This document shows, in pieces, positions 6,226-53,400 of a stretch of DNA of 64,000 bases. The notes under the pieces are model-generated. The model had not been told where the DNA came from and did no database searches. It worked only from the letters and a program-made list of their open reading frames with translations. Each line of letters opens with the position of its first letter. The first letter of the stretch is position 1. The stretch covers positions 1,612,001 to 1,676,000 of the forward strand of contig CAKKNE010000004.1 of the NCBI GenBank assembly GCA_918797485.1, read 5' to 3'. The position numbers and the translations under genes are program-made. This DNA is from Pelagomonas calceolata. Taxonomy: Eukaryota.

Positions 6226-6712
6226 TTCAAGGTAAACGCCATACATTGCAATGCCACATGCAGCGTAATCTTTGGAGTCTTAATCATTAAATAATGGCAT
6301 GCGCGGGAAAGCGTAGCTTTGTGTTACTACAAAAGACAGCAAGGATACCAAAAAATACTAAATAGATTGTGCGTTTGTGCATCACGCAGAGGCAAGTGCG
6401 GCTCGGGTGCCTATGCCTAAAGAAATATTGTACCCTAAGCGCCCTCGCGTTGTGCTGCTTGAGGAATCACAATACGGAGGCCCAGGGGTTGAAATGCCGA
6501 ACAATTCCCCTTCTGAAGTTAGAAGACGGCCTTCAAATTCCAAAGGCCTAGCTGGCTGCGATTAGTACGCGGGTGGAAGCAAACGAAGAATCAAGCATAG
6601 CGTTCCTCGAGTCAAAGCTTGAACGACAAAACTCGCCACAACTGAGCTTGGGGGGTGGCTCACACCACGCCGGGGCATCCGTGCTAGGCTGACAATCGCC
6701 CGTAGTAGTATA

Positions 6713-6799
6713 TGAAGTAGAGCCCATTTTGCATCAAAACGGACGCTCACGGGAAAAGCCGTTCGCTAACCGTTTGGATGCAAAATGAGCTCTACTTCA
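6713..6799. repeat. Long inverted repeat (hairpin) with 30-bp arms and 2 mismatches
   Basis: TGAAGTAGAGCCCATTTTGCATCAAAACGG ... CCGTTTGGATGCAAAATGAGCTCTACTTCA. Confidence 0.8.
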
Positions 6800-7641
6800 A
6801 TTATATTACGACCGAAATCCATGGTTCTGGGTGGCCGATTTTGGGGGTCTAATGAAGGGGCCGGACCCCACCTTGGGGATTCCCTCCACCGAGCGCCCGA
6901 AGGGGGCGCATCGGTCGGGGAGACTCGTAGGGCCCTCTTAAGGGTCGGCTGAGGTCAGGGTGGTGTATGGGGATCGGGACTAGGGCGCAGCGGCGCGCTG
7001 AAAACGGCAAAAACCCGTGAATCTCGATTAAAGGCGATTTGGTTTTGGCCTCGTGCGCAGCCTAAACGCACCCATAGGCAGCCCCAAGCTATTTCTGACC
7101 GCTCAAGGGGTCGGCCGAGGCGGTGCGCCAAGAAAAAGCGCGGCAGCACAACATTTCGCGATGCGCCAAATCGCTCTCCTACCACATGATGTGCGATACG
7201 CGATGTGGGCACGCCACTGCACAAAAAGCGGTGCGGACAGTACGGTGGGTATGCCCGGAGGCCCGCGGACAACTTCAGGCGCTCGAAAAGCTGGAAATCA
7301 TTGCACCGCGGCGGCCGCGTCGAGGTCGACGCGGGACGAATATGACGGCAGAGTACTCCTAGCTCAAAAGCCATACGTCTGGACCATTTACTGAACTCAG
7401 CACTGTTCATGTGATTTCCAGGGAATGCTTCTAGTGAATCCTCGTCCCACCCAAGTGGTGTTACTTGTCGTACTCAGGCTAGTAAGCGTTTAAATGTGAA
7501 ACATTTAGGCTAGTGTAGTACTAGGGGGTATATTCTTCGCAAGGTTTCCGGAAGTCACAGGTCTCCGACTTATATCCGCAACCCCGGCACCGTCCCCTGC
7601 TAAGCTCAGGAATGTGACCGAGGCTTGCCTTTCACTGGTAT

Positions 7642-7687
7642 TACCGTAGGTACCTACGGTACCGTACCGTAGGTACCTACCTACGGT
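7642..7687. repeat. TA-(CCG/CGG/CC/GG) array containing a 20-bp perfect palindrome, upstream of the SET gene
   Basis: TACCGTAGGTACCTACGGTA at 7642-7661; related arrays at 31961, 38637-38792, 53527-53559 and 61767-61807. Confidence 0.8.
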
Positions 7688-7747
7688 TTCGCAATGTGGA
7701 CACGGTACTGCGGGTTTCGCAATGCGGACCCATGCTGCCCCTAGGTG

Positions 7748-10609
7748 ATGACCGTCGCCATTTGTGCTAGACGCATTAGTCATCAAATAGGAGCTACGCT
7801 GGTATTTTCGCATCTGTTTTTTTTTTGTGCCCCCACGAATGCCAACCTTATTGATTGGCTGCGGCTTAAAGGGGGGATTGCGAATGGGCTCGAGATGGCT
7901 GAATTTGAGGGCATGGGCTACGGCCTAAGATGTTCATCACGACTCGAGACAGGCGCCCAGGCACTATTTGTACCATCATCTGTGATATTCAGTGGTGGGA
8001 ACGGGAATACAATTGCGCGTGCCCACGGGCAAATTCAGCCGCTTAGTGATGCAGATGCTATCGCCTTTAATCTGCTCTTGGAGCAGGCTAAAGGTCCGAA
8101 ATCTGTTTGGGCATTGTACATGTCTATGCTACCTCCCGCTGTCCTCACGCCGAAATTGTTTGGACAACCAGCCCTTAGCGCGTTGCATGAACCACAAGTT
8201 GCCAGACGTGCTGCAAGAGCACACGATCTAGCTGCAGCTACATTGGTGCGGGTCTCGCCAAGCCTTAGACGCGCAGTGCGGGCAGGCTGTGCTTTGGCGA
8301 GCGCCTCGGACATGAACATATGTATTGAGGCACACACGTCGATGGCAAGCTGGGCCTGGGCATTGTCGATTGTGAACTCAAGGGCATTGATATTCAAGGG
8401 CGTTCGTTTCCTCGTACCCATCGCAGACCTTGTCAATCATCGGACACACATTGGTGCGTGGATGCGGGAAGTTGAACATGGCAATTTCTTCTTGAAACAC
8501 CACGTTTTATCTACTTCAGGGCTTCACACATCAAGCGATCGCAACTTCGCTCCAGGCTACCAATTTTTTGAAGACTACGGTGACAACCCAACTCACATTT
8601 ATGTTGAACACCATGGCTTTGTCCCGGAAGAAGAGAATCCTTTTGACTGTGCGCCTGTCAAGCTTCCTAGCCTAAATCACGACGGGAATGGCCGCGCAAA
8701 TAGTCGAATTGACGTCCTGACTGCAGTTGGTGTCCATAGGATGCCATCAAAATGCATGCCTGGCGAGCTCAATCGCGTCCGTCAGGATGTACGCATCTTG
8801 ATATGGGCGCTCAGCATAAACACCACACAGCTTGAGGCCTGTCCTGCCACACTTAGCGACGGTGCTGCATCCTCTCAATGCGAGTATGCTTTTCCGCTGC
8901 CATCTTTGCACGAACGTGTAATCGCCCCCGCATTACTCAACGAAGCAACGGGCGGGCTTGCGGCCTTTAAGACGACACTAAAGAAAGATGAGATGGCTCT
9001 GGTAGATCCTTTGCTCGCACACGATCTGCGCCTCTCTATTTGCTTCCGAAAATCCCGGAAGCGTGTCTTGATGCGACTCGCCAGCGAAGCTGCGGCCGCC
9101 ATAATATGCGAAACTTCTAATAACAATCCCCACGATAAAAATGACGACCGTGTTGCACATGCGCCATTTGTGGAGCTTAAAAAAACTGTGATGCTGGGTC
9201 CACTAACAAAACGTGTCGCTGACTTCAATGCATGGACAAGCTCACGTAATTGGCCAGTGCTTCACGTAAAAGCAGCGATCCTGTCGTCACATGGAGGCCG
9301 GATTGGTGCGGTTGCAACTAAATCTTTAAATCAGGGGGAAGTCTACGTAGACGTCCCAGAGACTGACTGTCTAACAACAAGTGCTGCCCGCCGCGAGATT
9401 GGTACTGCAGTGCGTTCTCTCGATGACTTCCATGCAATTTTAATTTTTCTGGTGAAGTGCGTTGTGGCTTTAATCGGCAGTGATGGCAATGTCAATACCA
9501 CAAACAATCAGTTTGGACCCTACCTCGCTCTGCTTCCAGGAATTGATGAAATTGTCAGTTTAACCCTTGGCATCACATTGGGCCAGGATCATCACAGTGC
9601 CCAGAGCCCCCCGCTACTTTGGGCCAACTTGCCCACAAAGGCTGCAACTTTTGCACGGGACCGTCTTGAGGGCTCGGCCCTTGTGATCGCCCTACCTGCA
9701 TACGTCGCCTCGACGCAGCGTACCTACAATGCCATACTCCAGCGTATCAACCGGCGGGCTCTTGGAGCAGCCATCCGGCACTCTGACGTCGCTCTGTCTT
9801 GGCCCGTCTTCCGATGGGCTGCTCAGATCCTCGATAGTCGCTCTATATGGTGGAACGGTCAACGCCATCTAGTCCCAATGCTTGACCTTGTCAATGCGGT
9901 ACTTTTCATGTTTGGAATAGTCTTTAAGGTCAATTCCGGCGTAGGCAGATGCATTCGAGATACCACCCGGCACGAGCGTGCATCGCACCTCAACAGCAGT
10001 GCGAGATAGAAAGCGATTTGCCATTACATCTGCTGCGTGGCAGTTTGATCAAGGGGAACAAGTCCCTCGCCACGTCTAATTGAATTTACGAGCTTATTCT
10101 TTGGGTGTGTATTGTGGTAATCACAGGTTCTTGAGAATTATGGGCAACCGAATCATATCCTTTACCTTTATCATGGCTTTGCTCTAAGTGCCAATGACCA
10201 CGACTGCGTGCGTCTCGACTTTAAGATGACCATGGCCCATGATTCGGACGCACTGGACTCTGAAACTCCTGAATCTGCGGCCGTGAAGCGGCGTCTCTTG
10301 ACTTTTGGCTTCGGTGCATTGGATTACACCACTTGTGTCACGTCTGGTTCCCCGCATCTTGGGCGTCTGCTTGAGTTCATATCTATCAAGCACGGTGTTT
10401 CTCATAAAATTCATCACTCCCACTCGGGCGCTTATCTAGCACTGCTCGAGGAGGTTGACCACCGCATTTATATTTACGACCTGAATACCCGAGGTACTGT
10501 CGGTCACGCAAAGACGCTGATCTATAACGAGCTCGACCATCTCCGGAAGCTGAGAAGTGAACTTACCTACCTGCTTGGGTACAATGCGTTTCTTCCACTC
10601 GGGCGCTAA
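7748..10609 (+). CDS. Tandem double SET-domain protein methyltransferase (Rubisco-LSMT/SETD3-like class) with a predicted N-terminal signal peptide
   Basis: SET1: GMGYGL, LVPIADLVNH, FEDYGDNP..IYVEHHGF. SET2: LVPMLDLVNA, then after two GT-AG introns (about 9899-9944 and 10062-10126) GEQVLENYGQPNHILYLYHGF. Confidence 0.85.
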
Positions 10610-10700
10610 TTCATACTAGTTCTGTGCTGCCATTGATACCGTGACGAGTACTTCTCGTACTCCCCCAACTGACCTACTTTGCCGCTAAGTTATAAGCTGA

Positions 10701-10923
10701 GGTCGACACTTAAAGCGCAATCTGCCGCAGCCACGCGCCGGCCGAATGGCGGCAAACTTTCGCTGAGGCGCAGGTTCCGTATGCTAAAATGATGGGCTGT
10801 GCACAGTTTGCTGCGGTGCGGGCAGCCTCGCGAAGAAAAATCAGCTGAGACGCGGTGCGATGATGCGTGGTCAGATGCCAGTGTGAGATTAAACCCGCCC
10901 CAACCATATCGCTCCAAAGACAG
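10701..10923 (+). mobile_element. MITE family A, internal fragment
   Basis: High similarity to about 13600-13800, e.g. the shared GATGATGCGTGGTCAGATGCCAGTGTGAGATTAAACCCGCCCCAACCATATCGCTCC. Confidence 0.85.
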
Positions 10924-13431
10924 TATAAATGGACGCGTATAGAGGACGCGCAATTACGCCCTAATTTCCCCCTATCGTCCCCCAGTCGCAATCGTACCTA
11001 CTGGAATTTCCGGTGTTCGCCCGGGTGAGTGAGCAAAGTCAGATAAACAAAATAAAAAAAGTTGAAAAAAAGGAATAATTTCAATAAATAATAGGAACTT
11101 GAGGACCTCAACTTGAAAAGTTTTGTCAATGACAAAAATGCCTCCGATACGCCCACACATTTTATTTAGCAACGGCGAATACCCACCTAGCTAGGACTGA
11201 CTGAGCAGGGGCCACTTGGCGAGTGCGGAGAAGGGAGGAAGGAGAGGAGAGGAGGCTAAATGATAATTAATCGTCGTGTTAATTAATCGTCGTGCCGTGC
11301 CCTATGGACGCTTTGAATAAGTCCCAGCCCCTGTGACCTTTTAGCGCACGGATTTCGGTCGCCATTGGCCCGGGGACCCGCGGTTGGTAATAATAGCTAG
11401 TAGTATAACCACAGGAATCCAGCGGTGACGACGTTTCTCGCCTCACATCTCAAAAGAAAGAAACGGGATGGACCTGCCTCAAGTTTAATTAACAGTCTGA
11501 AGTGCAGTCTTCTAAAGGAATGTATAACCGAAAAGGAAAAAGGGCCGGGCAGGTTCGTGGATTTTGTAACGAACACTCATTCAACATCGCCAGGGGGTTG
11601 ATTGATTTACTTGGACCACGGAGGCACTTTCTAACGAATTTCCGAGCCATGAACCGCCTTACGTTAGAGCCTTACGTCACGAAAGAACTGATGCGTTGCT
11701 GCGAGTTTGGGGGAGTGCGGCGAGTTTTTGTCTTTCGGGCGGGGCGGGGGGGGGGGGGGGGTTGCGCCAAGATTTGGATATCCCAGACTAAAGGCCCAGA
11801 GGAGGGACACCGAAACACCAAAAATTTGCCGTATCTCTATAACTAGAGGCGTCCCTGCTGACCTAAGTGCCAGTGCAGTTCCCGCGGGCCGTGTCTGGCG
11901 TCCGATCCAGCCGCGCCCACGCATTCGCCCAAATTACCATAGGATGGCGGGCTACTTCGCGACCGCGTCCTGCCGCAAAAGTGATCCATTCCTTCCCGCA
12001 CATGGTCTCCTTGGGAGTCCGCAGCCAAATCTCAAATTAGCCCCCTACGCATGCCTGGTCTAGCGCACATCTCCTCGCAATTCAGGCCAAAGCCCCTGAA
12101 TTCCCTCCGGTCCCGGGATACCGAAAAAAAAAGACTCTGCGCAGCTGTCATAAGGGGATCTTCCCATAACGCTGTTTCTTCCTCTGCGCGGACCCCGGAG
12201 GGCGCCGCGCCGCCCCCAGCGACCCGCAAAGCGGCGCCATAAGCTCGACTAAGCTGCTTTTTATGGCCGCCAAACTGAGTCTAGGGATGGACGCACGGCT
12301 ACACTGCCCTCGAAGCAGACAGGCGCCGTACTCTGTTGATTTCTTATGTGTTTTTGCTGAGGTACCGATCGCTACTCCCGCGTGTCGATAAGAAGGTCTA
12401 AGATTGTTGATTTTTTTACAGGCTCCCACAGGGGCCCTAACGCCTCCGCCTCCGTTGCCTCGGCAAGACCAGGCGAAGCTTGAAAGCGCACCACTAGTTC
12501 TAAAATCCAACGCCACGGGCCTCACTCGGACGGCCCAGGGTGATAGATCGTTTGACTGGGGAGCCTTTCTCGATGTAACTAGTGGGCTGGTGGCTGGATT
12601 TCTGGACTCGCCGCATACCTTCTAAATCTTGCCCAAGACAGAATGACCCCGTTTATGTTGTTCCTGTTTGGTTGCGTGTGACCGTACAATGCGCATCTGA
12701 AGCGATGTGTGCCGCACGGTAGTTCGACGCGCATTTGACCTCGGATCTAAGATTTTGTCTAGCTACTTGTCTAGCTAGGTTAATTTTTGTTGTCAAACAA
12801 AATTCCAACATCGTGAACTCGCGTGCTGCGCGCCTTAGGACTTTGCGCTCTTTAGCTGCGCCGAGTTATCACGCCGTTGTCCGCGGCAAAGCGAAATTAG
12901 AGCCTTAACTTTTTGCCTCAGCCGTGGCGCCGCGATTTCCCGGTAGACTCGGCGCCGCGGCCGCTCAGCATGCGTGTTTGACCCCGCGTAAGTTTAAATA
13001 TACGCGTTGTTGGAGTACCCTCTCAACCGCGACATGATACCGTGGCGCCGGGATCTGCCGAGCGTCGCCCTTGGTGACATAACCGTGGGGACTGCAATGC
13101 CCCACCTGTTCACAGTGAGCTGACCTTCCAACTCAATGTCAAGGAGACTTTTCCTCTGAGCCGTCCCCACGTTCGGCTCGTGCCGGCATCATGCCGTGGA
13201 TCGCTACCGGCAACGCGCGATCGTGCCTCACTAGGGCCTATTCAGTAGACCCGGGCGGGATGACTGACCCCCAATAGTAGTACTAGATAGTACCCATTGG
13301 CTGCTGATATGACTGGGCGCGCCTATAAATTACCGATATTGTGCGACTTGTGTTTTAATGCTAAGACACTGGAGCAAGGCTCTGATTCTTAGGGTCACAC
13401 GGTCGTTACCAGCTGCTTAGGCTCTGTTCCC

Positions 13432-13943
13432 TAAGGCCGGAAACCGGTTAATTCTTTGGAGTAAGATTCTTCCTTACCTTTCTTGTCTCTAATCAGAATG
13501 AAATTAGACTGCGACGCTTAATTAAGACTCCTTGGAGACTTCGAAATTCATAGGGGTCGAGCGCAATAGTCGACGTTGGCAGGTTTTTGGCCAATTGAGC
13601 GTACAGCCACGCGCCGACCAAATGGCGGCAAATTTTTGCTAAGGCGCAGGCTCCGTATGCTAAAATAATGGGCTGTGCAAAGTTCGGTTTACTGTGGGCA
13701 GCCTCGCGCTGAAAAATCAGCTGCGACGCGGTGCGATGATGCGTGGTCAGATGCCAGTGTGAGATTAAACCCGCCCCAACCATATCGCTCCGAAAGACGG
13801 TCCGGGCGACGGTCCGAGATAAACCCGCCGAAAACCAATCTCTCCAACGGACGGGATAAATCGGCCTCTAATTATCCACTAATTATTTCCTATTGTTCCA
13901 TATCTATGTAGGGCTGCTAGTGAATATCCGGCTTCCGGCCCTG
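13432..13943 (+). mobile_element. MITE family A, full-length copy (about 510 bp) with hAT-like CAGGG-type termini
   Basis: Left end TAAGGCCGGAAACCGG and right end CCGGCTTCCGGCCCTG form an imperfect TIR. It is collinear with the copies at 30355 and 54778. No TSD is recognisable. Confidence 0.85.
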
Positions 13944-13977
13944 CAGCATGAGGCTCTGTCATTTGCTCGTAAATTGG

Positions 13978-16922: not shown

Positions 16923-18885
16923 TTTATATACCGCTAAGATCCGCCTATCACGATCCCTACAGCTGGACCATTGGAGCCGAAGCAGCACCACCCGACCCAG
17001 CTATAGTTTGGTCCCACCCCCCCTTCGCCCACATGACCCATATAGCCCATATAGCCCACTGCCCGCGCTCGCTGACGACGGCCGCGGCGCCGCGCCGTTT
17101 GCGGCGGCTATCTCCGCGATAAAAAAGAGGTCGACGGCCTACGGGCGCCCTCGCGCGCCACGGCGCGGAAGGCCGCGCACGGGGCAGCGTCCATCGCGTA
17201 GCGCTGCCTACCTACTAGCCTAAGCCCATTTTCGAGCCGTCGACGGACGAGTGCGCGCCCGCCGCACTCGTCGAGGTCTAGGGGGGCGCCCCCTCCGGCA
17301 AGCGGGGCAGCCCTCGTCGATGGTCGATGGTTCGACTCGGCAGCCTCGGGCCATAACCCATATAGCCCATTGGCGCGCTTGGCTGCCTTCCGCCCCGTCA
17401 TTTTGTGAGCGCTCGTAGTATGATAGAGAGACCCCCGCGGCCAGGGTCTCGACCATTTTTTAGCGGCAGACGGGCGCCCGCGGCGCCACACTGCACTGCC
17501 CCATCAGCACGCACCCTCCGTACGTCGCCGCATGACGTCGTACCATGACCGTCTTTCGAAATGACCTTCACCCAGAAGCCACGGACGGCTGACCGCAAGG
17601 GTTTGGGGTGCGATGAAGTTTGACCGTAAACGCGGGTGTAAAACGAGGTGCGTCGACCACCGATACGCGAAGTGCGAAGCGGGTCCCTTTGTTGGCGTGG
17701 AGCTTCAAAGGGACCGTGGGGACTGCGCAGACCGCTTGGTTGCTCGGGAACCCCTTTTTTACTATAAAATGTCCAGGAAATAGCTATATTCATTTCGGTT
17801 TTGCCAGAGGGGGCACACGTGCAAAAAATGACCAATTCTTATTCTTACTAAACGGGTTTCGTGGCGGAGAGACTCCGGCGAAGCAGTATGCTAGCGGGTA
17901 CATAGCAGGCGAAGCGCGCCCCATCACACACACGCGCACTCGCTCGCAACAAACTGACATCACAGGCACATAATCGGTCTGAAATGAAAAGGGGGCACGG
18001 CCATCTCGACCTCGCGTGAAGTAAACTAGCTCGCGCGCGCCTCTCTTCGAAGTTGTCAGAGACACTTCGCCTGTCCTGTAGTCCACGTGTTTGTGGCGTA
18101 CACGAGGGTGCATCATGACAAGAGAGGAGCTACGCGTGATGATGCGCGCGATGACGGCGCAACGCCGTGCGCGCGCGCGCGACAAACTTTGCGGTCATCT
18201 CGAGCCCTCGTAGTGTCGTAGATCGTTGGGCGCAAAGGTCGCGAAGCACCAGAAGCGGCGAGTTAAGCGAGTACAGCACGTACGCCCTTCTTCGGCTGCG
18301 TCGAAAAGCGCAACGCCAAAAAGAAGGCCCAGCGCTGCCGTAAAGCGCAGCCGCGCGACCGCTTCGCGTCGCGGCAGGTTGGGGGTATGGGGGGCGACAC
18401 GCAGGCAGCGCCCCGCGGCCCAATCTGCATGGGCGATGGCAATGGGTTATGGGCGCGGCGTAACCTTACTTACCTTATCTATACCGGCCTCGACGCGCCA
18501 CCCTTCGCCGAGCAATAACTATTGCGTGCCAGTGCAAAATAAAATGCCATAATCGTCTACGACGTCGTTATACGGTAGGAGTCAATCCTCTAGGTCAATC
18601 CGACTGAGTCAGGCTCCCGGCCGCACTGCAGTCCTCGGCTGGTGGCACAGGGTATTGGCTAGGCTCTAACTACTAGTAACATCCAATTTGATGTATTAGG
18701 AATAATGGAATAATATTTATGACGGCGATAGCCCTCCCAAAACGGCCGATTCCGATATCGGCGACCAGCCTGGGCATGACAATGGACCCAATGAGTCGGG
18801 CGATTCAGAGCATGTCGTCGGACATTCAGCATTCGCTTATTCGTCTATAGCATTTCCTCGAAAACGTACACGGGCTAATGAAAAT

Positions 18886-24362: not shown

Positions 24363-24864
24363 TCATCTCTGGCCTTTTCCTCGCTGCCAACAGAGCCTGC
24401 ATGTCTCTGATAGTTCCAGGCTAACGGCAGTGGCAACCTTAACAAGCATACCAGAAGCACATAGCTTGCTGGACTCAAAGTCCTTCCTATGAGTGACTTA
24501 AAGAAATGGTAGTTAGTATGTCTCTTCTTACCTCATTCTTGATATCTCTGCCTCTGTAGAAATCTTCATGTCTGTGAATTCATCCGCACAACATGTCTGG
24601 ACAACCACAAACTCTAACTTCTACGAGGGAGAATCTCGCACCTTATTGCCAGATCCCTGAAATAAAGCCTCCCGTCCCTTGTAGATCTGATTTATGACTG
24701 TCTCGGCTTCGCGCTTGGCTTCTTTGATACGCTCACCGCGGGCTACAAGACGATGATCCAGGATTTTGGTTGAATATTGAGAACAAACCCGCGCGTGCTT
24801 CGGTTACAATCTTCGAAGCACGATTTTCCGCTGTCATGAGCTCAGAGATTCCATCTCGAGTCAT
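24363..24864 (-). CDS. ATP6V1G: V-type H+-ATPase subunit G (4 exons, missed by the ORF track)
   Basis: The spliced translation MTRDGISELMTAENRASKIVTEARAARGERIKEAKREAE matches the subunit G N-terminal pattern (GIqqLl.AE..A...V.eAR..r..rlKqAk.EA); three short GT-AG introns. Confidence 0.85.
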
Positions 24865-26275
24865 CGTGCAGCTAAAGGCTACGTTACCGTAGCTCTACCT
24901 TCTGCGGTACGAAGTTTGTTGCGTGCTGCGGTAGGTAGCTGCTATTATAGCAACCGAAAAACTTAGTACCCCAAAAAATACACACACGATGGGCGGCGGT
25001 GGCGTGCCCCTTCGATGAGTCGGCGTCCTCCACAAGGTCCCTGTCGGCCTCCGAATCCTCCGGTATTTCGCCGAACTTGCCGAAGACCAGGTCGCGGATC
25101 AGGGTGGTGTACTCCGGTATCCGAGTCCCCTTAGTAGGGATCCCGGCCAGGTCGCGGAAGTCGCCTCCCACTCCTAACTATACATCATCCTGAGTCACTT
25201 TATTTCCCCCTGCATCGCAATGACAACAACAACAACAACAACAACCGTCCCGCGCGATTTCCGCCGTGGTGCCGCGCAAGAGAAAAAAGAATCCGGCGTG
25301 CGCGCAACGCCACCACCCGCAGCTTAAAGAGCACCTCTATACGTCTCGTGTAGACGGGTTCTCCACTGGAAGCGGCCGCCAGAGATAACTTGGCTCCGAG
25401 CGCAGCCTGAGCGCGTAGTGTAATATGCGCGCCAGGAATTTTGGCGTGCACGGGCCGTTTCTGGTGATCTCGGCGACTCTGTCGGGTCGTAGCATCGCTC
25501 CCGCACCCACGTGCAGGCGGAAATGTGCCCACGCTGCGGTTTCTTGTTCCAAAAACTTGATTGAACGTATGCGCCGCGTGCCGCACGCCGCCGACGCGTG
25601 TCATGGCCCCGACGTTTCCGCTTACCTGACTCCCGAGGACATCACTGCTGAGTCAATTTCCCGACTCGGCGAAACAGCTCGCCAACGGCCGCAACGCCAT
25701 TACAATATAAATAGCCTCTTTTCATCACTAGTACCCCGGGGTGTTACCTCCTCGTCTAAAACATATTCGGGTTTGGGGTGCTGCCCGGGGGAGCTATCTC
25801 CCACGAGCGTGCCCGTAATCTTGCTGCCGGTCGTAGAAGCGTGCGTCGGCATGGCCGTGCGCGGGCGCGTTGGCGAAGTCCGGGTTGCCGCTGACGAGCC
25901 GGAGGGCCGATCTTGATCCGGGCGTACTCGCGCGCGGTCTTGATGCCCCAGCGACGGTAAAGCGTTTGTGTCGTCGCGAGCGTGCTGTCGCTGCTTTTCC
26001 GGTGGTTCCGGTCTTGGAGTAGGACAAAAATATATGTCATAAGCGCCAGTGGCGGGCCGTGGGGGGGGGGGGGGGCGACGTAGCGTCCATGATAGATACG
26101 CGCACCTAGCCCTTGAGCACCTTTTGTTGTGCCTGCCCGCTGTAGTGTTAGCCGGAATGTGCACATGCCTTCTCAAACGCACGGACCAACGTAGTTTTAG
26201 CCGGAAACTGTGAACAGCCCTAGTCCTTGGCATAAGCACGGCAGCAGCAGCTTCTTGCTTGCTAGTCATCACACC

Positions 26276-28232: not shown

Positions 28233-28754
28233 GTTCTGGGACCTCTGTCTTTGAGCCTCTATAGCCCGTGGTCTCCTCGATAGTGAGCTGGCACATCCAA
28301 GTCGAGTGTGTATACCGTGACTTTCGCAACACTATGCGTTCCTCATTTCAAGTTGATGCTGGACCCGGAAGTTACTAGTAGATGCAATAATACCGGGGTC
28401 GTATGACAAATGGTGACGGAAGGGACCGGATGATGATATAGTTGTAGCATTCACCATTTTCGAGATTTTATTTAGAGGCCGATTAAGCCCTATTTGCTGC
28501 GCTCATGGGACAATGATAAAAAACGACACAACCGTGACCAAAAATTACCAAATATATATAATTTAAGACTGGATTTCGAGCTAGCCTTATCGTTCGCTCC
28601 CAGAGAAGCGGCCCAGACCAGTAGATGCTCTTCAAGTTTATTATTATTAATAGTAACCTCAGCCTGACTTGGCCAAAATGGGCACCTCCGACTCGGACTC
28701 GGAGTCAACTTGAACTTGAAAGGCCCGGGCCCCGGCGGGCGGCCGGGCCCGGAT

Positions 28755-29837: not shown

Positions 29838-30354
29838 ACCGAGGTGGCGGAGCTGCAAAGTGACCAGCGGCAATATTTTGCTCAAGACTATGACTCGCCC
29901 AAAGCCAACGCTATAGACCAGAGTCTGGAATCAGCTGCCTGAACGTCACGTCTCCAGTACTATGCCAATAGCAGAGAGTTACCTTCCCCCTATTTGATGC
30001 GCAGATGCATACGTGACTAAACTCGACAGAATGAGCATTATCGAGACCGCGAGTTTGATGTTGCCAGGAGGCTTAACTAGTATGAAACATCCTCCTTTCG
30101 TGGTCACATTCGCATGGGACTGTGCCTGGCATCCAACACTACGGTCCCACTCGACCCGGGCTCGTGGTCTAATGGGGTCCACGGCTGAGATAGCGTGCTG
30201 CCAATGCCGTGGGTTGCCAACACACTTTTGAACTTCGCCGAAATTATTGCAAACCCCCTGCTTTGGCACCAGTTTCCCGGGCGGTATAGTACGAATATTT
30301 TTTTTCCTATCGGCGTTCAAGTTCCGGGCAATATTTACATAAGGCCCAAGTCCC

Positions 30355-30934
30355 CAAGGCCGGACATCGGTTAATTCCTTGGAGTAAGATTCTGCCTTAC
30401 CTTCCCTTAGCTCTAATTAGAATGAAGTAGCCTGCGACGCTTAAGACTCCTTGGAGATTTCGACTCGGAACTTGAAATTTATAGGGGGTCAAGCGCAAGT
30501 CGACGTTGGCAGCTTTTGGCGCAATTGAGCGCACAGCCAAATGCCGACCGAATGGCGGCAAACTTTTACTCAGGCGCAGGTTCCGTATGCTAAAGTAATG
30601 GGCTGCCACAGTGTGCAAAGTTCAAGTTTGGTGCCAGTGCGGCGGTGCGGGCCGCAGCCTTGTGCTGAAAAATCAGCTGTGACGCGGTAGGAGGCTCAGC
30701 TGGAAACCCGCGAGCTCTGGAGGCCCGGGGCTCGTCGCCCGTTGATTTATCTTTTGCCTTAGTCTACTCTGACACGGCACGATCATACTATGATCATACG
30801 ATGGCCGAGATAAAACCCGCCCGGAAACCAATCGCGCCAACGGACGGGATGAATCGTCCTCTAATTCACCACTAATTATTTCCTATCGCCCCATATCTAT
30901 AGGGCTCCTAAGGAACATCCGATATCCGGCCCTG
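30355..30934 (+). mobile_element. MITE family A, full-length copy carrying several small insertions
   Basis: TIRs CAAGGCCGGACATCGG and CCGATATCCGGCCCTG; collinear with 13432-13943. Confidence 0.85.
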
Positions 30935-32008
30935 CTTACTAGTAAGGCCCACTGGCAAGAGGGACTCCGAGTCCGAGTCGGAATTTCGGGGTTGTCACTG
31001 TGTCTAGGTCGAATTACTCTAGGGCCAGGCGTTACAGTGCACACATCAGGCCAGCGCCCGGACCTGATCATAGCTTGTTGAGGGATTCAAGTTGCCAGTG
31101 CCAGTCACGGTGGTACTTCAGCGATCTATCATGATGATGATAATGAGTCGAGTCGTGGCTGAAGTGGCCCAGGGTTTAATTCAAGCTCGGCCTGCAGCTT
31201 GGAGGTAGCAGAACTTGAACCTTGAAAAATGTTGTAGAAAATAAAATTTACACTCAGGCTGTAAAAAATGCCGCGGCTATTTGGAAGTGTGGTTGCCGGT
31301 ACTTTCGCCCCGGGGACCGGAAGGCGCCGAACAGTGGCAATATTCACCGATCATCTCCTCGAAAGTCGCAGCTCACTGGACGTATTGCTTTTTACTGCTT
31401 TTTGCTCTAAATTTTTTAGCAAGCCGATAATCATGATCATGATGACTTTCAATGTCGTAAAGAAATTCAAACTTAGCCTGAGGGCCTATATAGCTTGAAT
31501 CGAAAATTCTAAACGGGCCTCAGGCTATAACACCCTATGATCGCCCAGACATCCGGAGAGAAGTACTACTAGCCTGGGTTCCTGCGGTTGCGTAGGTCAG
31601 TAGGATAGGATGAGTAGCTTACTCAGGCTAGTCACGGCCCGGGTACTACTAAGCGCTGACGTGATCTAGGCTAGCCACTTGGCTAGCCGCGGCATCTGAA
31701 AATCTCGAGCCAACTAGGGGAGGGATAAGGTAGATCACGCGCATTGCTGACTCGGAGATTCTGTGTTTGCAAATATAGCCTTGTGTTCCGAGTCAAGTTT
31801 CCGAGCTTCAGGCTGCCGGCGGCGGACGACGCCCCTCCATGGTTACCCCTAAGAGTCCTGCGAGGAGCCTCCGCGCTTCCCGGGCAAACTTAAGGTGTTC
31901 GCCCTCCCTGCCCTGCCCTGGAGAGGGCTGGGACTTTAGATTGCGGCCCTACTGATCCCGCCTACCGTAGGTAGGCACATGTATCAGGGCTACATGGCGG
32001 CGGGTAAA

Positions 32009-36671: not shown

Positions 36672-38878
36672 CAATGCCGTGGGTCCTGTACTATTTCTCG
36701 AGGCGCGGCAGAAAGTCGGGTGGTGAAACAATGCAATTCATAGCGGATATCTTAGGTCCCCTTCCGACCAACTCGAAGATGGTTCCGCCCGCCGCAAAGT
36801 ACGCCGCGTTCTCCCATTAAAGAGTGCCAATCTGAGTAGGACGTATATACGATTTGGGGAGTACTACTAGTAGCCACGACGCCAAACCAACTTGGCAAGA
36901 TCCATTTCCCTAACTTGAACTTATCCCTATCTATTATCCCTCTCGGCCTATGCAGGAAATAAGTAGGGTGCGGTGGTATACCGACCCCTTGCAACGGTGT
37001 GAGTGAGTTTGGCGTAAGTGACTCCCCGTGTAATACTAGCACTAACTTGAAGAATGAATGTGGTGTAAACCTTCATTACGTCAAGGTGGGACTAAGTAGG
37101 AGAGAAAGAGGGGCCTAGTGTAGTACTAGGGGGTATATTCTTCGCACTCCCCCTGGACCTTGATATGGTTTGGTTTTTCCTTTTTTTTTCAGTTTGATGA
37201 GTAGAACTTCTGTGTCTACTCTATCGTCACGGTGTGAGCCACAAGCAAATAGTGCCTTGTGTGGTTCGTGGTCGGTGTGTCTAGAGTAATTCGCGGACAT
37301 GAAAGGTCCACAGGGAATATAACCCTTGTATGTAACGAATTGGGGACTTAATTATGTTCAGTCATCAAAGTGTGTCCTCATAGAGTCATTTTCTTCTCCT
37401 CTCGTCGTATCAGATTGATCCATCGTTGTCGGTGTTTTCATGTTGGTTCGAGGCTTTCTTGAAGACGATTGAGGGGGTTGCTCTTTAGCAGGTGTCTTAG
37501 GTTTAGTTTTTGTATCATCTGATGAAGACGCAGCCTCAGGCTGCCAGAGAGTATTAAGATTCGCAGGGTAATTTATCTTAATTAGGACTCATGGAGGATG
37601 TGCCAGTGTCAATTTCTTATCCGAAAAAATTACCCGGGGTTACTCGGGCCATATTGTCCGTCTAGCTAAGCAGTCTGGACACTTATCCGAGTCAGTCCCA
37701 AGACTAAATAGACTGAACCTAGAACTAGAACTGTGTGCCAGACGCGTCATCGAGCAGAACGCGCCATCGAAGCAGACAGGCGGGACGCGAATCAGGATGG
37801 GTGGGACGCGGAATTTGGATCTTCCTCAGGCTCATCAGCTGGACGCGGCAGCGAGCGGCAGCGACGGTTGCGATGCCCTGCTAGACGCGGCGTCGGGGCG
37901 GCGTGCACTGCCTGGGTCGCCGGGTCCACCGAACTTCCCGACCCGCCAAAGGCCTCAGGCTGCCCCGGGCCGCACGTCTACCCCGCCCCCAGTGTCTGGC
38001 ACGAGGCTCGAGCGGCAGCGGGCTCCGCGGCCTCGGACTGCTGGCGCCACCTGCTCGACGGCAGATGTATAGACACGAGTAAGATACACGAGTTGACTTT
38101 GGGGAGGGCTGGGCGCGGCGTCACGGTTGGCGACTTGGGGCAGCGTTTGAACAGCCACTCCTGTAAATATGAGTTTAATGAGCTCAGTCGAGTGTCGCTA
38201 GCGTGGCGCACTCACAAAAAACGGGAGCACCGTCACCCGAGACCCGGGGCCTGGGGTGTTGTTCAAGCTCATCTTTGTATGCGACTCGGAAGTATAGTAT
38301 CAGCCAGCAGCCCGAGTGCGGGCCCGCCCGGGCCGGCGGCTTCTACTTGAAAATAAAATCGAAGGTGAGTTTGTACCGCTAGCTCTTAGTGTTCTTCGCC
38401 GCTCGCCCTTTCAAGTTCAAGTTGTACTACCGTCTAAAAGCGCTCAGGCTCCTCAGGCTCAACCGTGAACCCCGGGGCCTTTGATGAGCACCTTTTTAAC
38501 CGTCGGAGCCGATGCTGCCGCGAATCTGCCGCCGACTAGGACCCCGGATCAGCTCTCACCCGACTCTACCCCCGGGCCCCGGGCCCGGCGGGCCAACCCG
38601 GGCCGTAGTGAGGCTTGCACATTGTGGACATACAGCGTACCGTAGGTACGGTCTGAGTCCAGGTACCGTCTTAGTTCGAAATAACTATAGTCAATTCGGG
38701 TTTGGGGGTGCATACGCCTAGGGAGGGGTGTACCGTCTTAGTCCTACTGCGGTACCTACGGTATTGTATCTAACCTACGGGTACCTACGGTATGGTTGAG
38801 CAATAAACGATTTGTCACATGCCCATGCTGTTTTACATAAATTTGTCCGTGATATAAAGATCAAACTACAGTAGCCGC

Positions 38879-41800
38879 ATGGCACCGGTTAAGAGTGGTC
38901 CCCAGAAGCACAATGATGATCCACTCATCTGGGACCTCACGTTGTTTGCAAGGCGCACGCTTAAGCAGGCGGTACGTACAGAGCGACTTGGAAGTACACG
39001 GGGGCGACAGCCTCGCGGGCTCAGGGTGAACCTAGGAGGCCCGAGGACGGAGAAGCACATGCCCTTCGTGCCCAAACCGTTACCTCGGGACATCCTCTTA
39101 ATGAGCCAAGACTCACTCTCGCTTAGATATGAGAAAGGCACGAGTCGCGCGAGCCAAGCAAGTACTCTCAATATTCCTACAGAAACAGCAAAGCTACCAG
39201 CGCTAAGCCCCAGGCCTAATGAGTGTAAGATCCTCAGAGATACGAGGCCATTATTGGAGGGGACGTCATCATCCGCACCTAAAAGTACTGTGCAGCCGGC
39301 CTCAGTCCAGAAGACAATTGAGGAATTGAAGGCTTCGCCATTCAATGGTATTGCTGGTGGACAAGCGCCCAGGCTACCCCTGCCCAGCCTTGCATCTCCG
39401 CATAACCTGTGCGAACTTAAGGGTAAAAATGCGAATATCGAGAAGACTGGGCCGACAATATGGTCTGTTGAGGACTTGAATAGCAAATATAGAAACAAGC
39501 TTCTGCGTAAGAGCGCTCACCACGTCTCACTCAAGGTGCAAGAGCTTCAGTCAGAGCTGGTGAAAGAGGAGTCATTGATTAGCGTTGTAGGGCTCACGAG
39601 ACATCCGCTGCTTGCCCTATGTGATCAGCACACAGAGACGGCAAACTTACTTTGCATAGGACGAGGCCGTGCACGTTGCGTGGCAAGGCGATTTGTATTG
39701 GAGGTTCATCAAATCTGGCTGACAAATCTTGACCACCTCGAAGCCTCAAATCGCGGTGCTATCCCGCGACACCGCCGAATAGACATTGATGCTATTCTTG
39801 GCGTGAAGTCACAGGTTCAATCAGTTGCCAGCAAAAACTCTTGGCGTCTCCTGACATCACAAAGCCCTGCATCAGCATTTCTCATCTCGACGCCCAGCTT
39901 GCTTTCTCTGCCGACGACAAAAAATGCCCTCCTCTTTGAGCAAGGTCTGGAAACCGTCACTATTTTATCATGTGAACACCTTATGCGTGGTGGTGTTGTT
40001 TACTTGGCGTCACTCATGCGAGAATTCTGGCCAGGGTACATGATACCAGCCAAGTGGCGATTCTCGTTTTACGACCCACTCACGGGCGTGAAAACGTCAG
40101 CTGTGACATATGAGGGTGCTGAAACATTTAGGAATTCCGCTGTGCCGCTTGCACCATTGATACTTGCACCAGGCTTGGCTCGTCCCCCATCGGTAGAACA
40201 TAATTTAGTTTACACGCAGGGTTGCCTAATTCAGGGAGCAAAATGTGGATCTGTTGCAGCCGCCATCTGTCAAGTTTTTGTTTGTAGCCCCCGCGCGGAC
40301 GACCGTAACCGCATTGTTTTCTTTGATTTTGTGCTATTACCATGCAATAAGATACTCGCTCCGTGGCAGATTCAACTTGATGCGCTTGATATAGTTGGGC
40401 AGCTTGGCCTCTCACACGCGCCGTGCACGGTGGCTGAGTGGTGGTGCCAGCAAGGACAGGCCGGACTCTATGCGTCACTGCTTGCCCAGTTTGTCTGGAA
40501 GGCCGATGCACTGCAGCTGCAAACACCTCGGGGGGAGTCCTCATTAGCGTGGGGCTTTGACTTCAAGTTGGTTGCAACTCGTGCCGCTGAGTACCTCGGT
40601 ATCTTGACTGTAGAATCGCCGCAGTCTGGTCATCAGCATATTGCTTGTTTGGAGTTAGAAGGAGAATCTTACGATGAGGATGTACGCGCTATCAACAACC
40701 AAAGTGATGTTTTAAATCAGGGTGTACTTGCTGAGGGAGGTAATCCGCAGCAACTTAAGCAAAGACCCGTAGCTTCTCTATCGCTCTCCGTCTCCGGCGC
40801 GTGGGATCGTGCTTTTCAAGTGCCTGGAACGACAGGCGTCGGCACTTCTAGGCGCAACGTTACGATCCACGATCTCACTTTGCGGACCCAGATTCTACAG
40901 AATTGCGATGATGATCTACTCACAGATGGCCCTGAGACGATTGCGAGCCTGTACCGCGCTAACATGAGACTCCTTGATAGTGTCATTATCAATGTTGCGC
41001 AGGCGTTAGAATGTATTATTTTCTCCCCAAGTCACATATCCTGGGATAACGTAAACTTGAACCCGCCAGACGTATTCAGTTTTACCCACACGATTTGCAT
41101 TCCAGTTGTGCAGAAAACCCATCTCTGTCATGGTTGCTATGCATTCCTGTCACCAGCCACATGCATCGTCAGTCGATGTATTTTTGTGCTTACAACCAAC
41201 ACAGTTTCAGCTGGCTGTGGTATTGGCTCCAAAGTGGCCCCCATTGAAAATATTCCCGAGAGTGATGAGCGTGGGTTCCGTGTCGTGGTTTCATGCGCCC
41301 TGATTTCCCCGGCTCGGGACCTGAATATCCATTTTTTTTCACTGACGCGGGACGTTGCAACTCCCAACAAGGGTGCGCTGACCGACCGAGCTAATCGACA
41401 CTCAACAGAAATTTGCATATTGATCCTCAGCCGCATCCGCGTCGTCGATGACTATATCCACATACTCCACAAAAAGTCCCATCAGGGAGCCAATGACCCA
41501 GGCTTCTACAGCATCCATCTGCAACATGCCGGGTTCAGTGCACTGAGCCGTAGTGACTTAGCAACATCAAAAGAAGTAATTTCCATAGAACAGGAGCACA
41601 ATTTGCTTAAGGAGAAACGACGCCGCCTTGAGGATAAGCTTTCAAAGGGCAGAAAGTTTCTTGCGGGTAGGGAACAATCAAGTCCACGCCCCCAAAACAC
41701 ACAGGCTGCCATGTGCGAGGATAAGAGCCTTGAGGTGGTAGGAAATAACATCAACCCGAACACTGTAGATGGCAAACTCGCCAAATCCAAGGAAAGTATG

Positions 41801-48502: not shown

Positions 48503-51500
48503 TTAGTCGATGTAAATGCGCTTTCGAAATGAGGCCTCTTTTTGGTTTGTGCAATACCATGGTATTGCTCCAAACACAACAAGAGCCACGGCAACTGCAG
48601 TACCATAGAGTGTCGTGTAGAACAGTCGCTCCGGAATTTCAAGGACCTCTGCTTTGAGTCGCAGTGCTTTGCTACTGTCAATATGACGCTCCTCGGAAAC
48701 CCACCAGACTGGAAAGAACATGAAGCACCCGTAACCATTTTTGCTAAAATCTGCAGTTGGTACCTCGCATCGCTCTTGACTAGAGACAATTTGAGGAAAT
48801 TGCATGTTGCGTTCTATGCGAAAGTTGAATTGAAAACGACGGGCTTCACGAACAGTCTGGCCAGAGATGGGCTCAACGTCAATGTAGAAACTATGGAGCC
48901 TACGATCGTCATTTGTATTGAAATAGACCTCCCTGGCCTCAAGCCCCCCCCATATTTCATTGCCCCAAAAGTGAGGTAAACTAATAAAGCACGGCGAGTC
49001 TGCAATTGCTTCGAGCGAAATCATGCCATAAGGACAGCGGTAACGCTCGCCGTGGACGTCTTTTAAGCGATACCCAGCACGCTCACGGCCGTCAAGAAAT
49101 GTCTTTGCTGTAGTCTCGTAGCGATTTGCTCTAGCCCAGAAACGGCGAGTATAATTTTCAGCATCCAGCTTCTTGCGAATTGGCCATTCCGCATAAAACC
49201 TAGATCTCGACTCGTCCCCAACTTGAGCGTAAACATATGGACACCGTGATATACTCCTCTGAGAGATCTGCCATGCCAATCTCGAGGTTGCCGGTAGGAC
49301 ACCTTACTAGCTCAATGAGCATCAAGTGGTCTGCATTCAAAATATACATGACATCGGCACCCTGGAAACTGAGTCCCCTCGCCCTAGTAAGATATGTGAG
49401 GTTGTACTCTTGGAAGCCTTCCCAACCATAGGGTCGCATTTGATGGCTTAGGGTTCCTGCCATCGTCTCAATAGGATGCGCCTAAAAGCAGGCATGAACT
49501 ATCTCTCTCTTAGGTCTGGGCTACGCTGGTCCTCTGAGAACAAACTCGTTGCCAGTGATGAGGCTGGTGTTCCCTCGCCATTCTGCAACGCGCTGTACAT
49601 CATTGAGATTGTTTTTTCCTGTCACAAGAGTACTGGTGCAGTTCTGCCATTTCCCCTTTCCACCAAGAAAGCGATTCACACAGTCGGTTTCTTGGTGAAA
49701 TTTGCAAACTTCATCACCTTCGCAGCCACGACGCAAATTGATTGTAACGTCGGGCGCCCATAGTTTCCCAGGATAGATGGCGAAGGCTGGATTCTCGATG
49801 GTTAATGTCCGGCTCGATAGCGTAGCCATGGTGTCCTTAGGTTGAGTTTTAGGCTCAATGTAGTGCGAAATGTTGGTTGGATTTAGGATTATTTCGGGCA
49901 AATACCAGTCTCTCTTATGTCTGCCATTGTGTTGAAACTTCCTAGAAACCCCAAGTCTGTCTATAATTTCAAAACCACCATCAGTGCATTCGTTATTTTC
50001 TACTGGATTACAATACTCGTCAAGTTTGATTGTAGAATGATCCTGGCATCGCACAGATAGGTTATAATATTGTAGCTCTGAATTCAACAATGTCATTGCA
50101 ACTCTATCCACGTAGCCCTCAAACAATAGTCGCTTCGCTTGATGAGTAACAAAAAGTCCACCGTAGTTATAGGCACGGTCACAATACCCCTTTGATAAGC
50201 ACTCTGAGCAGTCTGGCTCATTGCAGACCAGTCTATTTTCTATAAGCACACGATAAGTCGACCACTCTTGAAGCCAGAAAGCAATAATGATTCCTCGCCG
50301 TCGACCATATGGGTGAATTGTCGCTGACTGGTAATCGTGGTTGTGGGCTGAATCGACCTTTAGGATTGTCTCAAGATCACAATAAATGCCGTAAGTTGGA
50401 TCAGAGATTAACGTTTCCCACGTCTTGCAATTTACCAGCCAAAAGCTATATCGTGGTTCAGTTTCAAGCCAGGAGCACTGTTTGTAATAGTCCTGAATAC
50501 GCTGGCAAGTAACAGCAGACGACATGAATTCCTCTGCAAGCAACGAAGCTGCCTGGTCTAAATTCTCATCGTCAGATGTATTGTTATTTACAGACGGTGG
50601 AACGGCCCCCAGGAAATTTCCAAAAGTATTTTGAGTCACGAAGTAGCTGCCGTTTGCCCGGCAGTCGCAATACCCAAAAAAATTGTTGTCATCCCCTATC
50701 CTCTCGTAGCAGTCGGCTGACGTTCGACGATGGAAGCTGCGAAAGGAGCTTGCATTTATAGCCATTCAAAAGGATAAGCAAAAACGCTGGACCGCACCGT
50801 ATACAATTTGCACTCTCACTGTCAGCACACCCACCGTCAGAACTGGCGTCTGGACAACGAAATGAAGTAGCAACCTCGCCGATCTTGCCGCGGAAAGTAC
50901 GTGCCCTGGGGCCGTTTGCAGCAAGAGCATCCAGCAAAATTCGTGCGCTTTCTTTGGTCATATTCATATTAGAATAGCCGACGGCCATGGCTTGTGAGTG
51001 AAACTCAATAAGATTCAATGTCGGTGAGGGAGATGCAATGCCAAACTTCCAATAGCCTTTTCGTTCAATATTTAAAACTGACGGTACCCCCCAGAGTGCA
51101 GATGTAACATAGCCTCCTCCCCATTGCGCGTAGCCGAGGTCTTCGAGGCGGCCAGCAAGAAATTCAAAGCCGGTGGCACGAGACATTCTCGATGCAACAT
51201 AGACTTCATGCCAATGATCTTTGAGAGCCCAAGCTTCGTAGAGGTGCCCCGCAACTGCGCATGCTTGTGCCTGGTATTGTTGAACCAAAGCGACCATGTT
51301 TGCCGTATTTGAACCTGTGATGCAAGAAACAAATCACATGTCCCCTGGGAAATTAAGATCATCGTACCATTGCCAGAAATGAATGTGCTATCATCCAGTC
51401 CTGCAGAGCGCGTATTCACAGTGGCGGAGAATGACTTGAGCGTGTGCTGGCTTAGATCAAACATGACCGCTGGAATGAAGGTTTCCGCCACACGGGATGC

Positions 51501-53400
51501 GTCTATCATGGCCTCACAACTAAATAGAGCTATGTGTCGTGACCGGGCACATGGATCATAGCTTACCTTGGGCTTCGACCGCTGCGAGACACATTACAGT
51601 ACTCATATACTTGCCACCATCGAACCAAATTTTCATCAGAGTGGATGCTAATGTCGTTGCGAGTATCTTCGTAGTCAGGATCGATAATCCACTTCGTAAG
51701 GGAAGAGTTCATCGGTGAAACGACAGCGTCATCTTCCCAGGGAGCATGGAAGTCTAACGAACTGGCAAGTCCCCAACTGCAACGGTAATAGTATAGACCA
51801 GGGCTTATGGCGACAGCAACGTCCGCGTACAGACCGGTGCTGTAGGAACCACAGTCACAACCGCCCCCCCGGAGAAAAGCTTGGTCCCCGGCCCACTCCT
51901 TGGTGCGATACTCATCGGCGCCCGGCGTGGTCATCCAACCCGTTGGCCCATAAAGGTGCCTTGCTATTCCCAGAGCGACAACTCTCGTTGCGTCGGGACT
52001 CTTCTCCAATACTTTGAGATCGTTGAGGACTTGATTGTATGCAAGCTGGTATGCAGGGCTGGCCTCATCTTCAAGCCCAGATGATTGCACTAGGCCCAAG
52101 TACCTTGCAGTGCCTATCCACAGGGGCACACCACGCTCATAGTTGAGCACAGAAATGGTGTTTGCGGGTTCAAGCAAATAAGCCGCCTGACGGGTAGTCA
52201 AAGTGGCTTCAGACTCAGCCACACCCGAAACAAGTGCTTCAGCTTTGATCGCGTCAGCTGTTCCAAAAGCCACATCTCCGGCTATAGGCGATAGGGACAG
52301 TGAGTTAAAATGCGAAATGGTGCTGCTGTCCGACAGGGCAAAAGAAATTGAGGCATCTGTACTACCAAGGGCCGACACAACTGCACCTAAGGCTGAGGAT
52401 GCATGCACCGCCAATCGATATGTCCAAACGTCAGAGATGGCATCTGGAGTGAGCTCCGCCTTGACCTGAGTATGAAGATAGTGATTGTCGTCGACGCCCG
52501 GTATTATTGCACGTACGGTTCTAGGAAATGCATCTGCAGCCACCATGGAATCGCGAATGTTAGCAAAGACAGACTGTGATAGCTCACCAAAGATTTCCTG
52601 GACGGTCCATCGATGCTGTAGTGCCACGAACTTTGGATTCAACATGGTCACCTGTATCAAACACAATGGTGGATGATCAGCTATCTCAACACACCGTTTC
52701 GTTGTCAGCAGCGCAACCTGCTGGTCGGTCTCGAGTGTGCTCATTATATTCACCCAAGCCCTGCTGGAAAAACATAAGTCGACACGCCTCTGTTGAATCG
52801 GCCTTTTGCAGATACCACCATTCCTTGTAGGTGACTTGTTTACCATCCTTGGACCAGTCCTACAAAAGTTTTGCACGTTTTTCTCATGAGTATTCCAGGC
52901 AACTTCTCACAATATGATATCTGTAGGCTTGCTTCACGTAGGCATAGGGCCCCTTCTCCTGGAGGCGTGGCTTATACCCTGACTCAATAAAATTTTCTGT
53001 ATTTGTCACGTGCCAAAGATAGAGAATGAATAAGTCTGTGGCCGAATCCTGCTCACGATGCCTACGAGACTCATGAGTCAAAGCCGCATAGCATGGGCGC
53101 GGCTAGCTGCTCAAAATCTTTGAAGGTCCAATCGTTTGTAAATTGGTCATATTGATTCAGCACAGCCTATGCAGTTTGAGTTAACCCCAAGCATGTCGAC
53201 AGCACTGCTTGGCGGACATCAAATGCGACGTTTGAGTCCAGCATTGTCGGAAAAAGATATTGGCTCCAGAGGAATGTCAGAACTATCAGGAGAACGGCGC
53301 CTGATGTGACGAAGCATTGACCTATCAGCCGAAATTTTAACGGCATGTGCCGCTCCCACTTCCGGGCCATGCCGCGCGATATTTTGACAGATTTTGTCAT
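48503..53400 (-). CDS. Very large CD36/SR-B/LIMP-2 family membrane protein (about 9 introns)
   Basis: N-terminal TM, then YLWHVTN...KPRLQEKGPYAY. The C-terminal part has PCFISLPHF, IDVEPISG...RFQFN, FPVWWVSE and a second TM. Short introns join the consecutive minus-strand ORFs in frame. Confidence 0.82.

Follow-up and report, generated by a model that had tools for sequence, protein, structure and literature searches.

Transposons are known both to leave excision footprints and to insert preferentially at promoters, and TA-bounded promoter words, which are abundant in protists and fungi, are usually classed as transcription-factor sites. The parts of the published accounts drawn on here describe several systems close to the arrays reported below. 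Excision of the pogo element Passer leaves footprints of 0–4 bp between TA duplications (PMC9976928), and the Tc1 footprint is given as taCATGta, as cited in PMC3520976. ESTA elements are described with TA duplications and a RAG1-like transposase, PlavakaB with 2–3-bp duplications and C...G ends, and the termini of the CMCT clade are mostly CA...TG (PMC12730594). Palindromic, microhomology-joined footprints have been described for the hairpin excision of Ac/Ds (PMC5873905). In Phytophthora, the word TACATGTA was judged not to be a Tc1 footprint (PMC3520976), is bound by PsMyb37 and is reported as conserved across Phytophthora species (PMC11134190); the question of footprint versus site has already been raised for it (PMC3520976, PMC3597505).

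Here we analyze a stretch of 64,000 nucleotides of the alga Pelagomonas calceolata (the window), which is gene-dense, eukaryotic and has a GC content of about 51%. As in Tc1/mariner elements and Passer, TA stands on either side of a short constant string and new TA targets arise, but, unlike the 0–4 bp of Passer in the part of that account used here, the unit of the alga has 7 nt (or 6 nt), is asymmetric, contains an internal TA and keeps a fixed order (PMC9976928). Like TACATGTA and TACCGGTA of Phytophthora, it is TA-bounded, quasi-palindromic and abundant upstream of genes in a stramenopile (PMC3520976, PMC3597505); unlike TACATGTA (PMC11134190), it shows no conservation at the orthologous promoter that was compared, occurs in stacks that vary between alleles and has no known binder. 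No description of the motif, or of such scars in pelagophytes, was found in the literature searched (including PMC4423477 on rice excisions), a search that combined terms, so that the 11-mer string alone could still be in print. Three features are new: a stereotyped, asymmetric 7-nt candidate scar; the restriction of this scar to gene starts, which a second class in the same genome avoids; and stacks that vary between alleles where a transcript start was measured.

Structure of the Arrays and Their Unit

The following clusters and genes are referred to below.

7642–7687, no strand assigned: focal array, with 11-mers at 7642 (plus), 7651 (minus) and 7665 (plus), a near-copy at 7678–7688, and TA-CCG and TA-CC fragments
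7748–10620 (end approximate), plus strand: SET/Rubisco-LSMT-like gene, introns 9898–9943 and 10062–10126
24627–24864, minus strand: V-ATPase subunit G gene, ATG 24864; small, intron-containing, absent from the ORF listing
24885–24937, no strand assigned: sixth cluster, one TACCGTAG and two TACCGCAG, ~20–70 bp upstream of the V-ATPase subunit G gene
31963–31973, plus strand: solo 11-mer before the Cas1-acyltransferase gene; its removal leaves a palindromic GCC-TA-GGC
38638–38648, plus strand: solo 11-mer; a polyA transcript on the minus strand has its 5′ end 10 nt downstream, at 38628
38745–38792, minus strand: divergent ankyrin-gene promoter (ATG 38879) with one 10-mer (TACCGCAGTA) and two 11-mers
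53527–53559, no strand assigned: palindromic array; the ATG of the CD36-like gene (53400, minus strand) lies ~130 bp downstream
61768–61807, no strand assigned: degenerate array ~90–125 bp before the ATG (61895) of the multi-bromodomain gene

The letters at 7642–7687 can be parsed exactly as originally proposed, that is, as TA separated by CCG, CGG, CC, or GG. The grammar of the arrays, however, is not one of free TA-CCG/CGG/CC/GG strings, but of stacks of a fixed unit, TA-CCGTAGG-TA (the core 11-mer, TACCGTAGGTA), with a sister unit, TA-CCGCAG-TA, and fragments. The 11-mer has nine exact copies in the window, on both strands and in every case with TA on each side, against a shuffle mean of 0.01; at least nine copies were reached in none of 100 shuffles. 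Wherever a 3-nt and a 2-nt piece are neighbors in the window, CCG is followed by GG (9/9; the four possible arrangements stand at 9:0:0:0), and although these nine pairs are not independent, some of them sharing one stack, five separate places all agree. Pairs in another arrangement amount to three cases only, within stacks of the contigs L003 and L016. The fixed order indicates that the unit is the 7-nt string, and solo loci bear the whole 11-mer.

Of the 15 TACC-N3-GGTA instances among 81,630 non-redundant bases, 13 have GTA as the spacer. In 21 of 26 cases (9% in the background), a TA comes within 0–1 nt after TACCGYAG; the T form is closed by G-TA in 14/19, and the C form directly by TA in 5/7 and by G-TA in 0/7. 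This coupling fits two discrete inserted strings, CCGTAGG and CCGCAG, better than one degenerate motif. The focal array folds as a hairpin (z −4.4), and hairpin-forming arrays break many contigs. Summed contig depth on the focal array reached 794 vs. 17, a value that suggests many similar arrays and gives no copy number.

The other clusters agree with the original prediction to differing degrees. The 22-bp palindrome followed by TA-CAG-TA is present at 53534–53555 as claimed. Units do occur at 38637–38792, but as three separate 11-mers and one 10-mer, with an unrelated insertion between 13-bp repeats. What had been called an array at 31961–31975 is a single 11-mer (31963–31973), and the first ATG downstream of it (31979) is only 6 bp away instead of ~35–250 bp; the orientation of this 11-mer is opposite to that of the units near measured RNA 5′ ends. 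The degenerate stretch at 61767–61807 cannot be split into the four units. The sixth cluster (24885–24937), also degenerate, had been overlooked. As for the names of the adjacent genes, Pfam backs Cas1 acyltransferase, ankyrin, CD36, and bromodomain, but for SET gives only a sub-threshold Rubisco-LSMT match; one distant homologue of this gene has PF00856. Both exon pieces of the V-ATPase subunit G gene match PF03179, with scores below the curated cut-off. The nearest named homologue of the BET-bromodomain protein comes from Chrysophaeum taylorii, and close homologues are present in marine sequence collections; this one protein search points to a pelagophyte-like alga.

Position Relative to Gene Starts and RNA 5′ Ends

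All six clusters sit at gene starts. Within 150 bp upstream of an ATG, a zone that makes up 7.1% of the intergenic DNA, lie 14 of the 16 TACCGYAG units, a count based on 13 hand-located ATGs (the MutL and BRCA2-like starts left out) and on a motif definition picked post hoc; the other two are 151 and 237 bp from the ATG. The predicted enrichment at gene starts is thereby supported. Units stand in both orientations, from 6 to ~150 bp from the ATG; they occur at 6 of the 13 starts, and the other 7 have none within 250 bp. Outside the window, the contig L016 has an array 63–165 bp before the ATG of a SAM-synthetase gene.

The RNA 5′ ends come from polyA reads of one sample, in pile-ups that count 15, 7, and 5 molecules and do not amount to mapped transcription start sites. 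The largest is the following.

7697, plus strand: pile-up of 15 RNA 5′ ends from the SET-like gene, next to a depth of 68 (run X24); approximate start

This pile-up is located 9–10 nt downstream of the last unit of the focal array, and the one at 38628 (minus strand, 7 molecules) 10 nt from the nearest unit, while the 5′ ends of the ankyrin gene near 38846 (5 molecules) are 54 nt from theirs. In all three cases the nearest unit reads TACCTACGG on the sense strand. The transcript that begins at 38628 (37674–38628, minus strand) is a polyA transcript of ~950 nt that lacks listed splice joints and Pfam matches; it is divergent from, and deeper than, the ankyrin transcript. A different TA-rich stack, made of CTAGCT repeats, was noticed at 57695–57735, 35–70 bp before the ATG of V-ATPase a in the divergent BET/V-ATPase promoter, and may be another promoter-proximal unit.

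Allelic Variation and Comparison With Relatives

The allele data comprise the window and ten same-species metagenome contigs (11 sequences), relatives, and two read sets. The expected length polymorphism was found: the focal array has five structural haplotypes among the 11 sequences, which differ by TA-bounded steps. Between fixed flanks it measures 49 bp in the window and L004, 63 bp in L001, L002, L003, and L005 (with point variants), 58 bp in L008, and 37 bp in L007, L009, and L010; in L006 its upstream part is swapped for other sequence, which itself holds both units. The array of L004 is letter-for-letter that of the window, and a contig from X10 equals window positions 7512–7677 without any difference. 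The start-proximal unit is identical in 11/11 haplotypes. A duplication of neighboring sequence, either inverted or in tandem (by 4, 5, 9, or 14 bp), would also describe each length step, so the focal locus alone cannot separate insertion from slippage. The four in-array substitutions of L001–L005 all turn TA into TG or CA (4/4); no conclusion is drawn from this, because in the wider allele spectrum, where 72 of 276 A/G transitions follow T, no strong TA bias is seen.

A conserved site of fixed length, which would have told against the original prediction, was not observed: the focal array is absent upstream of the SET orthologue of a sister species (L011–L013, 90% identity), where the three upstream sequences are identical and the promoter aligns only ~20 bp before the ATG, making this an absence and not an empty site. 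The comparison of orthologous promoters covers this one gene, plus a reverse case at the promoter of a gene that we take, from its sequence type, to be IFT74-like, where the sister species has a CCGTGG-TA stack and the species of the window has none. No unit was found upstream of the same-species SET paralogue (L014–L017) or in L018–L020. Given the 96% match of L016 to window positions 48505–53563, L014–L017 represent a paralogue locus of the same species and not another species. Opposite window positions 43.6–48.5 kb, L016 carries the SET paralogue and the SAM synthetase in place of the BRCA2-like gene, which is either a rearrangement or an assembly difference.

One dinucleotide near the CD36-like gene varies between the window and L016.

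53513–53514, no strand assigned: variable TA, empty in the window, TA-CTGCGG-TA in L016

Despite a similar 7-mer 10 bp upstream, tandem duplication does not relate the two states, and the 10-mer itself (TA-CCGCAG-TA when read on the other strand) has six occurrences at five separate sites. This is the one case of a TA vs. TA-x-TA allele pair, and it concerns the sister unit; there is none for a solo 11-mer. In the CD36 promoter of L016, an 11-mer is nested inside the internal TA of another 11-mer, by one insertion or by two matched slippages. No empty site was found for the solo 11-mer at 31963, across which contigs from X4 and X12 run without a gap (a contig from X5 has 21 gaps there, their positions unplaced), nor within 38216–38977, where X4 has no gap.

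A Second Class of Scars Away From Gene Starts

The most enriched 8-mers of the window all follow the rule XY-C-rc(XY)-G-XY. AACTTGAA has 34 copies and CCCGGGCC 27, against control means of 2–3, and seven such 8-mers together have 136 copies in the window, of which 126 are intergenic. An example is the following.

28687–28732, no strand assigned: run of 8-mer scars of the XY-C-rc(XY)-G-XY class, tandem and nested

None of the 126 intergenic copies lies within 150 bp of a located ATG, where 9.0 were expected; the 11-mer and 8-mer classes split the intergenic space with opposite position bias. Among 28 clean 6-bp indels, taken from alleles and repeat copies, 21 convert XY exactly into XY-C-rc(XY)-G-XY, and copies of one repeat differ by 8-mer scars. 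The 8-mer class behaves as insertions and is a well-supported scar class. The palindromic microhomology geometry of the 21 indels matches hairpin opening of the Ac/Ds type as far as it is described in the part of PMC5873905 used here, where the footprints of Ac/Ds and hAT elements have the flank copied palindromically around the terminal base and joined through microhomology. Ac/Ds footprints are, however, heterogeneous and centered on the complement of the flanking base according to the same part (PMC5873905), whereas the scar of the alga is stereotyped, with constant C/G bases. An attempt, by hand, to derive the 11-mer from the rule of the 8-mers failed at every register.

Further examples of 8-mer scars are found at 30462–30476 and 38409–38460, and the class also has 8-bp variants (no microhomology) and variants with a 3-bp duplication. 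In the sister species, a 720-bp element (L012:8739–9458) has inverted ends of 19 bp with C...G termini and lies between TT copies, features that make it a candidate for the donor type of the 8-mer scars; a 93-bp C...G element with a 3-bp duplication is located at L012:2492–2584.

Search for a Donor Element

A low-power search of the window and the fetched loci yielded no TA-flanked element with CC- or CCG-ended terminal inverted repeats, and no transposase domain was detected among the 90 ORFs scanned. A 20-nt double unit gave no matches in viral contigs and one match in prokaryote genomes, which is about the chance level and represents no donor. Two candidates were rejected: L012 4843–5381 as a TA-CC...GG-TA element, since its inverted repeat extends past the TA and it has no flanking duplication, and a 4-bp GTAC target duplication, since the solo 11-mer at 31963 is flanked by C...G and others by A...C. 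The single prokaryote match places the double unit, as the same 22-bp palindrome, on a stop codon at L036:6501–6520, in a contig of 32% GC that is filed in a bacterial MAG and whose gene layout looks giant-virus-like.

Origin of the Arrays

We lean toward the reading that the stacks are one-step excision scars of a TA-duplicating cut-and-paste element that targets gene starts, with slippage adding copies. An element with CC...GG ends would insert at a TA within open promoter DNA, and its excision would leave flank hairpins that read TA-CCG-TA on one side and TA-GG-TA on the other. These would anneal through the copied TA to give the 11-mer in a single step, and alternative joins would give the shorter CCG, CGG, CC, and GG fragments. 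A scar in a GTAC site would produce two GTAC sites, and a promoter hit once would be hit again where the element prefers GTAC; the earlier idea that each scar makes new TA targets was counted as supported. Slippage and fold-back probably add copies to existing stacks.

We count in favor of excision scars the fixed unit order, the GTA spacer (13/15), and the coupling of the unit to its closing TA; the non-tandem change from TA to TA-CTGCGG-TA and the nested 11-mer of L016; the five focal haplotypes, the absence of an array at the sister orthologue, and the 7/13 starts without a unit; and the presence in the same genome of an 8-mer class with hairpin-footprint geometry. The existence of TA-duplicating elements with RAG1-like transposases (ESTA; described in the part of PMC12730594 used) points the same way. 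By analogy, we infer hairpin chemistry for ESTA and Plavaka, for neither of which a published footprint was found in the literature searched. Against excision scars we count the lack, in the sequences searched, of a donor, of a transposase, and of an empty site for a solo 11-mer, as well as the scarcity or absence of the symmetric products that hairpins predict: the window has no TACCGTACGGTA and no TACCTAGGTA, and L003 has one TACCTAGGTA. The invariant start-proximal unit, the two RNA 5′ ends 9–10 nt away, and the zone free of 8-mer scars fit selection on a functional site and likewise speak against it. The hairpin model leaves the CCGCAG string without explanation, and the internal TA of the 11-mer fits a hairpin copy but does not discriminate, TA being its own reverse complement. 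An 11-mer scar would also imply CC...GG ends, whereas those of the CMCT clade, in the portion of the account consulted, are mostly CA...TG (PMC12730594).

A lesser but real possibility is that TACCGTAGGTA is bound by a general transcription factor or by a protein that positions the start; promoters would gain and lose this site, and local slippage with fold-back copying would build it up into direct and inverted stacks, no transposon being required. Such a site would account for the contrast between 14/16 units and 0/126 8-mer scars within 150 bp of an ATG, for the same position outside the window before the SAM-synthetase ATG of L016 (63–165 bp), for the two RNA 5′ ends 9–10 nt downstream of a unit in one orientation, and for the start-proximal unit that is invariant in 11/11 haplotypes; moreover, local duplications suffice to describe every focal allele, a related CCGTGG-TA stack occurs at a different promoter in the sister species, and TACATGTA of Phytophthora provides a precedent in the portions of the accounts consulted (PMC3520976, PMC3597505, PMC11134190). 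A binding site is harder to reconcile with the absence of the motif from 7/13 promoters of the window and from that of the orthologue in a species whose protein is 90% identical, with its occurrence in both orientations at 6 to ~150 bp from the ATG, and with host genes that have no evident common function. A degenerate site would not be expected to show the invariant spacer and the T/G-TA and C/TA coupling; the third RNA 5′ end lies 54 nt from the nearest unit, and the non-tandem TA-CTGCGG-TA and nested L016 alleles require extra events. Copy number and spacing are not fixed, with five structural haplotypes, though the start-proximal unit is invariant. Excision scars and binding sites can both be true if the scars were co-opted.

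The original explanation, in which a Tc1/mariner/pogo element with CCG...CGG ends left independent serial footprints of 2–3 nt (CCG, CGG, CC, GG) at neighboring TAs, appears quite improbable. Single steps of 5 bp (TA-CCG, TA-CGG) and 4 bp do separate alleles, and TA duplication with 0–4-bp footprints is documented for the superfamily in the part of PMC9976928 used. Yet independent footprints predict four equally likely neighbor pairs, where the window has 9:0:0:0, solo loci hold the full 11-mer, and the low-power search of the window and fetched loci found no CCG-ended element. With CCG and GG joined in 9/9 pairs and a unit of 7 nt, set against the 0–4 bp given for Passer in the same part of that account (PMC9976928), independent footprints are not supported. 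Chance low-complexity sequence or an assembly artefact has a negligible probability: the arrays do fold into hairpins and break many contigs, but nine copies against 0.01 expected and an identical array in independent assemblies (L004; the X10 contig over 7512–7677) refute it.

A more far-reaching picture, in which a TA-specific hairpin-forming transposon homes to gene starts, its stacks amplify themselves, the scar sets initiation ~10 bases downstream, and the two classes divide the intergenic DNA into core promoter and distal spacer, so that promoters were built by transposons since departed, is speculative and rather unlikely as a whole. Because wild alleles differ in unit number, a close species is without the stack, and the second class serves as a control of opposite bias, the question of scar versus site is directly testable. 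If the stacks are excision scars, a motif can become enriched at gene starts while having no regulatory role, and the stacks document a transposon that homes to starts and whose chemistry is undescribed; if they were co-opted as well, they represent a route to new promoters.

Other Repeats and Variable Regions

A dispersed repeat family of ~550 bp, probably a non-autonomous element, is represented at 10692–10924, 13419–13947, 30342–30938, and 54749–55418. Within its copy at 54.7–55.4 kb sits a 355-bp element whose inverted ends measure 51 bp. The regions 6703–7542 and 16982–18485 are missing or replaced in several alleles, the latter adjoining the 5′ end of the MutL gene, and the segment 7034–7342 is multi-copy and strongly transcribed.
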